A stretch of DNA of 64,000 nucleotides from NCBI GenBank assembly GCA_965217775.1, contig CBDCJH010000002.1, positions 1,504,001-1,568,000 of the forward strand, given 5' to 3'. Of the stretch, positions 9,885 through 64,000 are shown in pieces. The DNA comes from Acidobacteriota bacterium. Lineage in GTDB: Bacteria > Acidobacteriota > UBA6911 > RPQK01 > JAJDTT01. The position numbers and the translations under genes are program-made. Under the pieces are notes generated by a model that saw nothing but the letters and a program-made list of their open reading frames with translations, was not told the DNA's origin and did no database searches. Position 1 is the first letter of the stretch; each line of letters opens with the position of its first letter.

Positions 9885-10830
9885 GGTTTCTCCAAGCTGG
9901 CCATAGACAGATGTGATTTTTTCGCCGGAAGGGGCTCACCCGGCAGAAAAAAGAGGCCCAGCGGTGTGTCCGGCGCGGCAAGACGGGAGTTGAGAAGGTA
10001 ACTGTCCCTTCCCCTTTGGTTCCCCTCGTGTGAAAGAGAGCAGAACAATGCAATCGAGGCTTGCGCCAGCAACAAGGGGATCATGCCCGCTGTGGTCTTC
10101 CTCAGCCATCTGCTTTTATGGCTGGTGAGGCTTTCCATGATTCCGATCTCCTTGAGGTGACTCAGCCAGGCGTGGAAGACGCTTGCAGTCGCCGTCGAAT
10201 CGCCGGTCTCCTGCCCCCCGTGGAACATCCCCACAGAGGGCAGGAGGTACGTATCAATGAATGTGAATTTCTCGCCGGAATCGGCTCACCGGGTTAACAG
10301 CCGGACAAGGGGCCACGTCTGGTGCGGGAAACCGGATGTCCATGGTCCGCTTTCGAGTCCGAAAATGTACTTTGTTCGTACTCGAGGGGACCGGGAGAAG
10401 GGGATTGTTACATTCTCGTACTCGTAGAGTCTTCAACCGACCTCGGGTCGGGCACGGGAACTCTGCTCATGGCTGCCGCTCAGGCCCTGACGCAGCGAAG
10501 CGAAAGAGATTCCAGGCCACGCAGCACGATGCTATTGCGAAAGCGTGGCCGCTCGTTGAGAAGATTGATCTGCGGGAAGCGTTCGAGCAGTGTCTCCAGG
10601 ACGATCCGGCCTTCGAGACGCGCCAGAGGGGCGCCCAGGCAATGATGGATACCGCGTCCGAATGCCAGGTGGTTTCCTTCTCCGCGCTCGAAATCGAGCC
10701 TGTCAGGGTTCTCAAAAACATCCGGATCCCGGTTGGCCGCGCCGAGCAGGACGACGATGTTCTCGCGCTCACGCAAAGGGAAACCGTTGGGGATTATATA
10801 CGTAAGTGCCGAGAATTCAGGCTGATGGGT

Positions 10831-10836
10831 TACAAT
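10831..10836 (+). promoter_or_regulatory. Putative -10 box (TACAAT) for a leaderless tnpB transcript
   Basis: TACAAT ends 7 nt before ATG 10844 and there is no Shine-Dalgarno sequence; no clear -35. Confidence 0.4.
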
Positions 10837-10843
10837 TCCGACC

Positions 10844-12019
10844 ATGAAAGGCCACGCAACTATCCAGTGCAGAGCCAAGCTGTCCAAGGGTGGAATCCGG
10901 CGGTTGGACCGGGTGAGGTCCATCCTGAATCGGCTGTACAACGCTGCACTGGAGGAACGCAGAACGGCCTGGGAATCCGAGCAACGCGGCGTGACCCTGT
11001 ACGATCAGATGAAGGGGTTGACCTCCCAGAGGAAGGACGATCCGGAGGGGCTCGGGTCGGTGGCGGTCAAAGCGGAGCGTGGGATGTTGATGCGGTTGGA
11101 CCGGGCCTTCAAGGCGTTCTTCCGTCGCTGCAAGGCGGGGGAGAAGCCGGGGTATCCTCGATTCCGGCCCATTGCGAGGATGGAGACCATCGACGTCGTC
11201 GACCCGAAGGCGACCCTGGTGAAGAAGCGCGCTCGGGGCTACGCCATCCGGCCCAAGGGCTTCCCGACGATCCGGATCTTTCCGTCCCGGCCGTTGCCGG
11301 ACGGATGCCCGTTGAAAGCGTTGCGGATTGTCCGCAAGCCGAACCGGGTGTATGTGGACCTGACCTACGAGGTGGAGAAGCCGCCGCTACCGAAATGCGA
11401 GTCTTCGGTAGGGATCGACCTGGGCGTCCGCAAGCGAGCGGTGCTGTCCACGGGTGAGAGGATCGAACGGAATAGACGGGACTGGGCGGGGATCCGAAAG
11501 CAGCAGAGAAAGGTCTCCAGGTGCAAGAAGATTTCCAAGACCAGACGGAAGCGGATCGTACAGCTATCTCGGCTCCGTCACCGGGAATCGGTCCGAAACC
11601 GTAATGCCTGCCATCGTCTCTCCAGCAGGATCATTCGTGAGCACGGTCTGATCGCTGTGGAGAAGCTGAACATCCAAGGGATGGTAACGAAGGGCTCGAA
11701 GAAGAAGGGGCTGAATCGAGAAATACTGACGCAATCATGGGGGCTTCTGCGGAATCAACTCCAGTACAAGGCAGAATGGGCCGGTCGGAAGTTCGTAGAA
11801 GTGAATCCCGCATTTACCTCGCAGGACTGCCACCGGTGCGGCGCCCGCCACGATCCAGGACGGAGCGAAACCTTCCGGTGCAGGGCCTGCGGACTTGGAA
11901 TGGACAGGGACCACAATGCCGCCCTGAACATTCTCAGGGCTGGGGTTCTTGCCCTGGGCACCGGAACGTATCTCGTTGGGGAAAGCGTGGTGCCAGAACT
12001 GTATGCCAAGGGCACTTAG
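10844..12019 (+). CDS. tnpB: RNA-guided endonuclease TnpB (IS200/IS605 OrfB family), catalytic motifs intact
   Basis: LYNAALEER, AFKAFFRRCKAGEKPGYPRF; RuvC-I GIDLG, RuvC-II IAVEKL, Zn finger CHRCG/CRACG after TSQ, RuvC-III DRDHNAALNI. Confidence 0.95.
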   Translation: MKGHATIQCRAKLSKGGIRRLDRVRSILNRLYNAALEERRTAWESEQRGVTLYDQMKGLTSQRKDDPEGLGSVAVKAERGMLMRLDRAFKAFFRRCKAGEKPGYPRFRPIARMETIDVVDPKATLVKKRARGYAIRPKGFPTIRIFPSRPLPDGCPLKALRIVRKPNRVYVDLTYEVEKPPLPKCESSVGIDLGVRKRAVLSTGERIERNRRDWAGIRKQQRKVSRCKKISKTRRKRIVQLSRLRHRESVRNRNACHRLSSRIIREHGLIAVEKLNIQGMVTKGSKKKGLNREILTQSWGLLRNQLQYKAEWAGRKFVEVNPAFTSQDCHRCGARHDPGRSETFRCRACGLGMDRDHNAALNILRAGVLALGTGTYLVGESVVPELYAKGT

Positions 12020-12052
12020 GTATATAAGCCCCAAACCGTTTACTTCGCAGTC
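11930..12052 (+). ncRNA. Predicted TnpB omega-RNA (scaffold overlapping the tnpB 3' end and right TIR; guide = TSD plus flank)
   Basis: Stems seen by eye: CAGGGC/GCCCTG (11935-40/11951-56), GGCACC/GGTGCC (11957-62/11989-94), TGTATGCC/GGTATATA (12000-07/12019-26, two G-U pairs). Loop GGGGTT (11942-47) can pair with terminal AGCCCC (12027-32). Boundaries inferred by analogy with IS200/IS605 omega-RNAs. Confidence 0.6.
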
Positions 12053-13392
12053 CTCGAGCACGCGACGCATACTCATTTGTACCGGTGAGTCGAAGCGTAG
12101 CAGCTCCTCGACCGCCGCCGGAACCAAACTCGGATTCTCTCTAAGTTGTTGAAGCTGATCCGGATGACGCAAAAGGGCCAGCATGCTGTTGCCAATCATG
12201 TTGGTCGTGGTCTCATTGCCGGCAATCAGGAGCAGGCGCAGCATATTCAACGTTTCGCGCTCAGTCAGTTGGTTGCCCTCTTCCTCCGCTCGAACCAACG
12301 CGCTCACGATGTTGTCCTGGGGCGCCACGCGGCATTCCTTGATGATCGGCCGGAAATAGCCATCGAAGGCCTCGGAGGTGGCCTCGGCGACCGCGCGATC
12401 ACGGTCGTCTATCGTCGGCTCCAGAAGGCGCGCACGCTGATCCGACCAGATCTTGAATTGGGCGCGGTCCTTTGGCGGCACGCCCAGCATCTCGGCGATG
12501 ACGGTCACCGGCAGCGGTTGGGCCACTGCCTCCATGAGATCGAAGCCGGTGGGATCGTCGATGTCATCCAATAACTCCCCGAGAAGACTTCCGATGCGCG
12601 GCTCCAGGGCGTTCACGGCGCGTGAGATCGCCTTTGCGCGGATCGTTGCTGAAGCGCCTGTGGTCTCGCAGGATGGCATCCACGTCCGCGTGGCGCGTGA
12701 ACACCCAGGCATGCATCAGGCGGCTCCGGTGCACTGGGTCCCGTTCGCGTAGCGCCGCGTAGAGAGGATAGGGATTCTGAACGGTGCCGCTCGACAACGG
12801 ATTGTATGCGACACCGCTCTCCCAACGTTCACGCATGAGCATCGTGCGTGCGGCGACTGTCCGTATCGCGGTGCGAATTGCGTGTGTCATCGACCCCTCA
12901 GTGCGAGTATCCGAGTAAATCTTGCAAGGCGTTCCTGGCAGCCGCCAGGAATTTGTCTAATACAGGCATGCCGAAAGAAGCTTACACTTTTTGCCAAGTA
13001 TCGAGATCTTGCCAATATCACCCTCGATGTTGGCGATTTCTCGTCTGGCGGCCTTCCGGTTTTCGGGTCCCGGAAGTACGCCCGGGGGACCAGACTTCAG
13101 TGACTCCCACAGACTCATTGTTTCGGGCGATCGGTCGAATTTCCTGTCTTCAGAGGAGACGGGGGGATAGTCTTGTCCCCCGATTCCCATCTTCCCGTTC
13201 CGCGATGACGGTCGGCAGTTCGGCATCTGGAAAGCCGCCGTTCCTGGGCGGTGGGGGAGCTTCGATCGTTCCTCCACCGCGCCTTTGATTTGCTGTCGAT
13301 AGCAAATTACTCCCCCGGTTTTGCTATTGATAGCGAATACTTGCGGACGTCAGTCTACGGATCTCGTTCTCTGGTTGGACGATCCGCCTCTT

Positions 13393-63324: not shown

Positions 63325-63521
63325 CTCAATAGAACAGGTTATGGGCAACAACGGAATGAATTCAACAGATTCCGGCGGATTTTCCGGTTCCCGGAGATTT
63401 GTGGGAATGGTTGCTCAGCGGGGGCGGGCGAAGGTACCGGCATCTCAGTCAGGCACTATTTCGACATATAAAGCACTGAATAATCTGGGGGATTATATAC
63501 GAAAGTGCCCAAACCTGAGCA

Positions 63522-63704
63522 TTAACGCCGGTTCCGTGGCCGGTCTATCCATCTGATATTCACGGGCTGGACCAATGCACGGGCCAGCTCCTCGAAGTCT
63601 GCTTCCACGCGCATATCCTGTTCCAGTTCGGCCTTGGTCGGTTGGTAGGAATCCTTGACCAGTTCGATGGTGGGATGTTGGGGATTGTGTCTGGGTTTCT
63701 TCAT
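63522..63704 (-). CDS. Small hypothetical protein (YQPTKAELEQD motif) inside the second element
   Basis: 60 aa; ATGA overlap with the upstream gene; ends 12 bp from the TIR. Confidence 0.6.
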   Translation of the reverse strand: MKKPRHNPQHPTIELVKDSYQPTKAELEQDMRVEADFEELARALVQPVNIRWIDRPRNRR

Positions 63705-64000
63705 GCGGCCCTCGGCATCCTAGGTTGTTTCCCCTCAAAGGAGTCTTCCGCCGTGTAGATTTGAATCTTGGGCAGGTCCATGAAGCGTCCGGCGTTGACG
63801 GCGGCATTTCTCATGCCGTTGGTCACTCGGTCTCGAAAGCAGGTGAAGATGCCGAGATCAGCTCCGGCCTGTCGACGTGCGCCGTTGAAGGCTTGGACGT
63901 GTCCAGGATTGGTAGAGCCGCCTTTGACCTGAGAAACGATGTCAATGAACCGGCCCTGGCGGATCGGGAGCCGTCCCACGCCGTCAATTCCGCCATCCCG
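63701..64000 (-). CDS. C-terminal Mrr-like restriction endonuclease domain (possibly fused to a DNA methyltransferase outside the window), partial
   Basis: RDGGIDGVGR...IVSQVKGG...ADLGIFTCF matches the Mrr DGGID...QxK pattern. Confidence 0.7.
   Translation of the reverse strand, partial: RDGGIDGVGRLPIRQGRFIDIVSQVKGGSTNPGHVQAFNGARRQAGADLGIFTCFRDRVTNGMRNAAVNAGRFMDLPKIQIYTAEDSFEGKQPRMPRAA

Follow-up and report, generated by a model that had tools for sequence, protein, structure and literature searches.

RNA-guided TnpB nucleases are found in association with several kinds of bacterial transposons. Six branches of TnpB that are associated with DDE transposases (DDE-1 to DDE-6) were described by Altae-Tran et al. 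2023 (PMC10691335), all with inverted terminal repeats (ITRs) and, for the most part, with the 3′ end of tnpB no more than 250 bp from the end of the transposon; these authors also report solo TnpBs that have the same ends and were probably moved in trans, and they judge the elements to be currently mobile. The only DDE family named with TnpB in the text of that paper is IS630, and a 2026 review (PMC13565253) names ISL2, IS630 and IS1031. We did not find a link between TnpB and the IS1595 family (ISXO2, ISNwi1) in the searchable literature, although the supplements of Altae-Tran et al. 2023 may list such a clade. In IS200/IS605 elements the transposon-adjacent motif (TAM) is the TnpA target, for example TTGAT for ISDra2 (PMC13565253), and in those Fanzors that are located within transposons with terminal inverted repeats (TIRs) and duplications of the target site (TSDs), the guide-RNA scaffold is reported to include the TIR and TSD, and the TAM to include the 5′ TSD (Yoon et al. 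2023, PMC10711439; PMC13565253). It is an open question in the field whether OMEGA nucleases (obligate mobile element-guided activity) help transposons beyond IS605 and IS607, and the case made in the 2026 review is that they should bring little advantage to DDE cut-and-paste elements (PMC13565253). In this work we describe a tnpB element with IS1595-type ends in a 64,000 bp stretch of DNA from an Acidobacteriota bacterium (assembly GCA_965217775.1, contig CBDCJH010000002.1, positions 1,504,001 to 1,568,000), which we refer to as the window and from whose first base positions are counted.

Judging from the sequence, it is likely that the unit at window positions 10789–12032 is a non-autonomous member of the IS1595 lineage with ISNwi1-like ends, whose only cargo is an active-looking tnpB gene with its guide-RNA scaffold, and which is mobilized in trans and retained in a TAM-like manner. 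An initial annotation of the window held that TnpB normally travels only in IS200/IS605 or IS607 elements, a view that is out of date given the six DDE-associated branches (PMC10691335), and that a DDE family had recruited TnpB and mobilizes it in trans as a candidate new class of transposon. The recruitment part of this proposal gains support from the ends and TSD that the element shares with a resident IS1595-family insertion sequence (IS) and from its lack of a transposase; the claim of a new class does not hold, as DDE-linked ITR-flanked TnpBs are already described (PMC10691335). The element belongs instead to a clade in which TnpB is carried on ends of the IS1595 type and is obligately a non-autonomous passenger. 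The newer part is an asymmetry at the insertion sites, where a one-sided G suggests that the nuclease helps such copies to persist.

Structure and copies of the tnpB element

The tnpB element is a 1,244 bp unit with the following features:

10780, + strand: G, the base adjoining the left TSD on its 5′ side; a candidate for the TAM, telling an empty from an occupied site
10781–10788, no strand: left TSD, 8 bp, AAACCGTT; present as a single copy in the empty alleles of genomes G013 and G012
10789–10810, + strand: left TIR, 22 bp, GGGGATTATATACGTAAGTGCC; 20/22 to the right TIR and 21/22 to the TIR of the autonomous IS described below
10811–10843: spacer of 33 bp between the left TIR and tnpB
10831–10836, + strand: TACAAT hexamer, 7 nt 5′ of the ATG; possible −10 box (weak), read from the sequence
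10844–12019, + strand: tnpB, intact, 391 aa, with Pfam domains PF01385 and PF07282
12011–12032, − strand: right TIR, 22 bp (reverse complement GGGGCTTATATACCTAAGTGCC); shares sequence with helix 4 of the RNA described below and with the tnpB stop codon
12033–12040, no strand: right TSD, AAACCGTT; second copy of the 8-mer

Every detail of this layout (TSD, TIR, 33 bp, tnpB, TIR matching at 20 of 22 positions, TSD) had been proposed in the initial annotation and was confirmed on the sequence. The list of open reading frames (ORFs) agrees that a second gene would not fit, and with no DDE transposase of its own the element is strictly speaking not an IS but a derivative that carries only a passenger. 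Nor is it of the IS200/IS605 or IS607 type: it has 22 bp TIRs and 8 bp TSDs, and its TnpB scores under the cut-offs of NCBIfam NF038281 (IS200_TnpB; 165 bits, cut-off 425) and NF038280 (IS607_TnpB; 127 bits, cut-off 350). The element ends, GGGGATTAT, fit ggnnatTAT, which we take to be the ISNwi1 consensus of ISfinder.

The boundaries can be read from the host gene, which encodes a cytochrome P450 on the minus strand. In-silico removal of 10789–12040 reopens the P450 frame across the junction ...RRVLEDCEVNGFPLRERENIV... (CEVNGFPLR), the same peptide that the initial annotation had given. Two genomes of the same genus, G013 and G012, carry an empty site (...cacgcaaaggg-AAACCGTT-tacttcgcag...) in which the P450 allele is uninterrupted and the 8-mer is present once, and the insertion thus consists of the 1,244 bp unit plus an 8 bp duplication.

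The source genome (G000; two contigs, 6.43 Mb) has twelve full-length copies of the element at 94–100% identity. Ten of these have perfect 8 bp TSDs, all different, one has a TSD with one mismatch, and one is without a TSD; similarity between the copies stops exactly at 12032. The tnpB ORF is open in 10 of the 12, and is broken by a stop and indels in one and split by a 160 bp miniature inverted-repeat transposable element (MITE) in another. There are also two more complete tnpB subfamilies in G000 (86% and 71% nucleotide identity), each with its own 8 bp TSD, and two 5′-truncated remnants, with ends of the GGGGCTTATA type in all of the subfamilies and remnants. In a set of nine genomes from the genus, only G000 (12 copies) and G012 (two copies) have the main tnpB family. 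The element is mobile, inserting with exact boundaries and 8 bp TSDs into A/T-rich 8-mers. A transposase gene is present in none of the approximately 60 elements examined, which are 1,228–1,445 bp long.

Relatives were surveyed with a profile of 25 homologues and one genome per species, and the best 80 loci were taken from 511 stretches encoding a relative. A TIR (at least 12/16) together with a perfect 8 bp TSD was found at five of the 80 loci, compared with zero in each of five flank shuffles; one of the five is L041 (unpublished genome G004), which is counted in the 80-locus tallies but left out of the tree described below, and none of our conclusions depends on it. GGG(G/A)ATTATATAC ends flank the closest relatives among these 80 loci, at 37–76% amino-acid identity. 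The hosts of relatives with GGG(G/A)ATTATA ends are from four phyla (Acidobacteriota, Binatia, Caldilineaceae of the Chloroflexota, and Arenicellales of the Gammaproteobacteria), across which the related TnpBs range from 37% to 87% identity. Scans of metagenomes with the left TIR gave no matches in one instance, and then two matches on a single uninformative contig.

A search of G000 with the TIR (up to five mismatches) identified 39 sites, which are accounted for by the tnpB elements, seven ISs with IS1595-type transposases, and two lone remnants; there is no tnpB-less MITE with IS1595-type TIRs among them. These data bear on the possibility that the element arose by a one-off nested insertion of an IS605- or IS607-type tnpB into a MITE. 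We found nothing in its favour, and it is refuted by the twelve copies of identical internal structure and by the subfamilies at 71–86% nucleotide identity that have the same layout, and both the recurrence of that layout in homologues from other phyla and the lack in G000 of a tnpB-less MITE with these TIRs also speak against it; we give it essentially no weight.

The 160 bp MITE that splits one of the tnpB copies (G000:C2:4647530–4647689) is palindromic, with ends CAGTCCGTGGTGAAAGTCG... that are unrelated to IS1595 ends, and gives 269 BLAST matches across G000 at ~97–100% identity. Several tnpB elements without matching TSDs have one of their two TSD halves in common with another copy (ATTGGTAA, CTATTTTA), including L251/L253 and L252/L256 in genome G002 and the copy at G000:C2:1186780–1188023, which suggests inversions or deletions by recombination between copies. 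One homologue, P0034 (473 aa, 65% identity), has a helix-turn-helix domain (PF13744) in place of the OrfB_IS605 annotation and may be a fused or rearranged form.

The interrupted P450 gene is present in two parts:

10480–10788, − strand: C-terminal part of P450, with heme-binding FGRGIHHCLG (ORF 10480–10941)
12041–12890, − strand: N-terminal part of P450, with a ~100 bp deletion and frameshift near 12620

It is shorter by ~100 bp at approximately 12615–12625, where G013 and G012 have ~102 extra bases (query positions 592/585). With the tnpB insertion, the loss of ~100 bp, and the N-terminal part in another frame, the gene is a decaying pseudogene.

A probable autonomous IS1595-family partner

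An autonomous IS of 1,762 bp accounts for five of the seven ISs located in G000 by the TIR search, and provides the IS1595 transposase with the same ends that the initial annotation had suggested looking for. Both of its TIRs are GGGGATTATATACGAAAGTGCC, matching the left TIR of the tnpB element at 21 of 22 positions and the right TIR at 19 of 22. One copy extends into the window, and is a likely source of transposase:

63488–64000, + strand: first 513 bp of an autonomous IS copy (G000:C2:1567488–1569249), with TIR GGGGATTATATACGAAAGTGCC and TSD ATAATCTG

The 334 aa transposase has DDE_Tnp_IS1595 (PF12762, 132 bits) and Zn_ribbon_IS1595 (PF12760) domains and matches NF033547 (transpos_IS1595) at 177 bits. 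All 16 of the autonomous-IS copies examined in G000, G012 and G008 have perfect 8 bp TSDs. At 98% identity or greater, the IS is present among the nine genus genomes in G000 (five copies), G012 (seven full copies and one interrupted), and G008 (five copies). The main tnpB family is seen only where the autonomous IS is present, and G008 has the IS without the main tnpB family; this co-occurrence is a pattern among closely related genomes and not a statistical test. Around the IS1595 transposase genes of genomes G001, G003 and G005 we found no TIR with a perfect TSD.

Downstream of its transposase gene the autonomous IS has a 109 aa passenger ORF (L023:909–1238, − strand) with weak matches to Mrr_cat (21.6 bits) and NA-iREase1 (31.9 bits), which resembles a truncated restriction-endonuclease-like passenger. 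In one region of G008 (G008:C1:4122494–4126026; L202 and L209) two copies of the IS follow one another in head-to-tail order with 9 bp between them, and their TSDs, AATTAAAA and ATTAAAAA, overlap.

A one-sided base at the insertion sites

Insertion sites of tnpB elements (type-A sites) were gathered from G000, five relatives, and loci in other phyla, and include at least 25 copies from one Caldilineaceae genome and four from one Arenicellales genome. There are 56 distinct type-A sites, 41 of which have a TSD with no more than one mismatch. At all 41 the base at position −1 (the neighbour of the left TSD on its 5′ side, upstream of tnpB) is a G. Within the TSD, +1 is an A at 35 of the 41, and both +2 and +7 are A or T at every one, and the base following the right TSD (+9) is unbiased (A13, C12, G10, T6). 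Thirteen of the remaining 15 type-A sites also have a G at −1. The autonomous IS serves as a control, and at 16 sites in G000, G012 and G008 (one further G012 copy without a locus was left out) there is a G at −1 in only three or seven, depending on the orientation in which the site is read (Fisher p = 2e-10 and 1e-6, respectively, for tnpB elements versus the autonomous IS).

The strict one-sided G belongs only to the tnpB-bearing elements, and the IS1595 transposase itself thus seems to favour A/T-rich 8-mers with G or C as the neighbouring base at either end. Moreover, the one-sided G persists in families of G002 and G003 whose two TIRs are identical. With identical TIRs the transposase cannot sense the orientation of the cargo, and the asymmetry must therefore come from the cargo. 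We note that at an occupied site the base beside the right TSD that is equivalent to −1 is the terminal C of the element. A tentative reading, to which we would give not quite an even chance, is that the TAM consists of the invariant G, perhaps with the A/T-rich first bases of the TSD as well, and that it decides which of the DDE cut-and-paste insertions become permanent.

Alternatively, the G could be set at the time of insertion, if TnpB (with or without RNA) were bound at a G-flanked A/T-rich site and positioned or oriented the IS1595 transpososome, a primitive, TAM-level form of nuclease-directed transposition. Consistent with this, the G is absolute (41/41) even among the twelve G000 copies that are 94–100% identical to the window copy, leaving little time for a filter to act after insertion, and it is orientation-specific, as in Cas12k-guided Tn7-like elements. 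However, an interaction between TnpB and a DDE transposase is not known, one base provides very little targeting information, and guides derived from a previous flank cannot specify a new site. Retention after insertion covers the same data without a new activity, and we regard setting at insertion as very improbable.

The TnpB protein and its phylogeny

The TnpB has OrfB_IS605 (PF01385, 65 bits) and Cas12f1-like_TNB (PF07282, 89 bits) domains, and matches NCBIfam NF040570 (guided_TnpB) at 216 bits (cut-off 100). Its best natural relative of solved structure is the ISDra2 TnpB (8bf8; E 1.4e-32, residues 26–375). The RuvC residues D192, E273 and D354 are invariant in the 25 homologues, and the zinc-finger cysteines C329, C332, C346 and C349 are nearly so. 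The ratio of nonsynonymous to synonymous substitution rates (dN/dS) is 0.15–0.40 in pairwise comparisons between four tnpB subfamilies. By these measures tnpB looks like an active nuclease gene.

A tree of TnpB proteins was built with 75 rows, after removal of L036, L087 and L099 (short), L042, L046 and L070 (stops), and L041. All ten of the rows with GGG(G/A)ATTATA ends are inside one group of eleven with support of 99 in the Shimodaira–Hasegawa-like approximate likelihood-ratio test (SH-aLRT), the eleventh being L038, whose ends are unclear, and the nearest homologues are consistently TIR-flanked. In ten outgroup loci, which are a selected and not a random sample, there is a 119–150 aa ORF directly upstream; eight of these are clear IS200-type Y1_Tnp proteins, one is marginal, and one is not. 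Because the sister lineages are beside Y1 TnpA genes, the clade with IS1595 ends appears to be descended from ordinary IS605-type TnpBs.

The initial annotation had also suggested looking for further copies with different TSDs and for TIR-flanked nearest homologues, and both are present. Nearest homologues with ordinary ends, an absence of other copies, and empty alleles with different boundaries, which it had named as arguments against itself, were not found.

Another type of end, GGTAGTGGGTCAGTTT, characterizes TnpBs from Acidimicrobiales that form a group of their own (tree support 100). The loci with these ends are L043, L059, L063, L134, L137, L159 and L161, and the insertion-site sample for this type is a single element with a TSD (L059, in which the 8 bp TSD is perfect). 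In genome G006 the GGTAGTGGGTCAGTTT ends occur 41 times, versus two for the control, and they also bound MITEs of ~150 bp (in L132, L141, L147 and L149). They are not on the IS1595 transposase loci of G005, and there is no transposase candidate for them among the ORFs near lone ends in G005 and G006.

A probable guide-RNA scaffold in the right end

The right end of the element has the potential to form a structured RNA, and two features can be assigned:

11935–12032, + strand: minimum extent of an omegaRNA-like scaffold, with helices 11935–40/11951–56, 11957–62/11989–94, 11966–74/11979–88 and 12001–07/12019–25
12033–12052, + strand: flank (TSD and host DNA) that would be turned into guide by read-through of the scaffold; similarity between copies ends at 12032, and the assignment is modelled on the guide RNAs of TnpB and Fanzor (PMC10711439)

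Alignment of the last 150 nt together with 20 nt of flank from nine Acidobacteriota elements gives an RNAalifold consensus of 27 pairs in four helices. On this fold 97.9% of the cells are paired and 14 pairs are changed on both sides, one example being the compensatory change of CAGGGC/GCCCUG to GGCGGC/GCCGCC. None of 500 shuffles reaches any of five RNA measures; slid controls, in which the partners are shifted by 1–3 columns, are 30–48% paired, although this comparison is flattered because the structure was derived from the same sequences. The conserved G-U pairs fit only the tnpB strand. An Rfam scan of 10700–12150 at E ≤ 1 gave no match. The four-helix RNA is probably an omegaRNA scaffold, and since its last predicted helix (12001–12007/12019–12025) falls inside the right TIR, the transposase-binding end would double as part of the RNA. 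By analogy with characterized guide RNAs, the 3′ part of a read-through RNA would be the TSD and the host flank.

These features have a bearing on whether TnpB is simply a passive cargo, captured once between IS1595 ends in the manner of the passengers of ISNwi1-type 'transporter IS' elements, with the G at −1 arising from some other cause. The IS1595-family ISs here do carry passengers, as illustrated by the 109 aa Mrr_cat/NA-iREase1-like ORF, and DDE excision makes a break of its own (PMC13565253). But a passive passenger accounts poorly for an association that a single TnpB clade has maintained in four phyla, for purifying selection on TnpB, or for compensatory changes in an RNA scaffold that is joined to the right TIR. 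It also does not predict a one-sided G (41/41) that is absent from the transposase-bearing IS and is kept where both TIRs are identical, and passive carriage seems unlikely.

A model for retention of tnpB elements

In the model that we prefer, the IS1595 transposase would bind the TIRs and, acting in trans, move the tnpB element by cut-and-paste. An omegaRNA would arise from transcripts that pass through the right end, its 3′ portion being made up of the TSD and host flank, and TnpB with this omegaRNA would recognize the vacated site (G, TSD and right flank). The occupied site would be spared, because the 8-mer there follows the element's terminal C. The vacated site would then be cleaved, and its repair from a sister copy would put the element back. 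A copy beside a G would thus be restored after excision and act as a stable source, in a process resembling copy-and-paste, and a copy elsewhere would merely move on. If only the G-flanked copies leave a copy behind on moving, this would explain the invariant G. There is precedent for homing by cleavage of vacant sites (10.1101/2023.11.20.567912). In a bolder form of the TAM reading, the guide would always begin with the TSD, such that TnpB could dock at its own left junction (the G plus an 8 nt match) and so regulate or tether the element.

Several considerations weigh against the model. Its transposition, RNA and cleavage steps are all deduced from sequence. The TAMs of studied TnpBs are 4–5 nt, and the one fixed base here is shorter. 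A scan for sigma-70 consensus promoters and terminators found none on the tnpB (+) strand. The covariation set is made up only of the nine Acidobacteriota sequences, five more distant RNA sequences having been excluded for poor alignment, and the sequence is compatible with a guide that starts either at the TSD or after it. It is also harder to see what an element of this kind gains from TnpB than in the case of IS605, given that a double-strand break is already produced by DDE cut-and-paste excision (PMC13565253). Finally, G002 (Caldilineaceae, a single chromosome of 5.06 Mb) has at least 25 tnpB elements of several subfamilies (L246–L275) and only a 62-residue remnant of an IS1595 transposase, and G001 has five copies of the tnpB element and only a broken transposase gene. 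A resident partner is thus not always present, and the tnpB elements may outlive or lack one, or a helper may be on unassembled DNA.

The abundance of tnpB elements in G002 without an intact IS1595 transposase also recalls the old IS1341 idea that TnpB is itself the transposase of a TnpB-only IS, in which case the likeness to IS1595 ends would be coincidental. Set against this are the 21/22 match between its TIR and that of an IS with an IS1595 transposase in the same genome, the same 8 bp TSD, and the finding of the main tnpB family only in genomes that hold that autonomous IS. We know of no TIR- or TSD-forming activity of a RuvC-only TnpB, and consider this idea highly improbable.

Elements with and without TnpB use the same transposase family in the same genomes, and the strict one-sided base is found only with TnpB, such that the question of whether an OMEGA nuclease helps a transposon of this kind becomes testable in a small bacterial system. 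If the G is indeed the TAM, these elements would represent a natural experiment and would give, for the first time, evidence from genomes that RNA-guided homing operates for a prokaryotic DDE transposon and influences how it is distributed. The TnpB is also compact (391 aa), with a TAM that is possibly minimal.

Comparison with known systems

The IS1595 family, as treated by Siguier, Gagnevin and Chandler in 2009 and in ISfinder, reportedly includes an ISNwi1 group with passenger genes. The elements described here resemble the reported features of that group in their 8 bp TSDs, the zinc-ribbon and DDE transposase of the partner, and a capacity for passengers, and would do so in their ends if those of the group begin with GGnnATTAT. 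They differ in that the tnpB element is without a transposase, and in that the passenger is an RNA-guided nuclease whose predicted scaffold uses the right TIR.

The IS1341 group and the ISDra2 TnpB (PDB 8bf8, 8ex9, 8exa) are alike in near full-length protein homology and in an omegaRNA at the 3′ end that reaches the right end of the element. However, their elements have subterminal hairpins and neither TIRs nor TSDs, whereas here there are TIRs and an 8 bp TSD. And whereas the TAM of IS200/IS605 elements is the TnpA target, the TAM-like signal here is a single G before the TSD.

The DDE-associated TnpBs of Altae-Tran et al. 2023 share the location of tnpB between ITRs, a tnpB 3′ end near the transposon end, and solo copies with the ends of transposase-bearing elements (PMC10691335). 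The differences from the branches described there are the absence of a cis transposase in approximately 60 elements and the IS1595 partner. With no member of the clade having a transposase in cis, a neighbourhood-based survey could class it as solo TnpB, and TnpB clades that never adjoin their transposase can escape such surveys. Fanzor1 and Fanzor2* proteins, as described in PMC10711439, offer a parallel of another kind, with a TnpB homologue inside a TIR/TSD transposon, the TIR within the scaffold, and the 5′ TSD side contributing to the TAM. Theirs are eukaryotic or viral hosts and mostly short, fixed TSDs; here the TSD is a variable 8-mer and the host is bacterial, with homologues named Bryobacterales.

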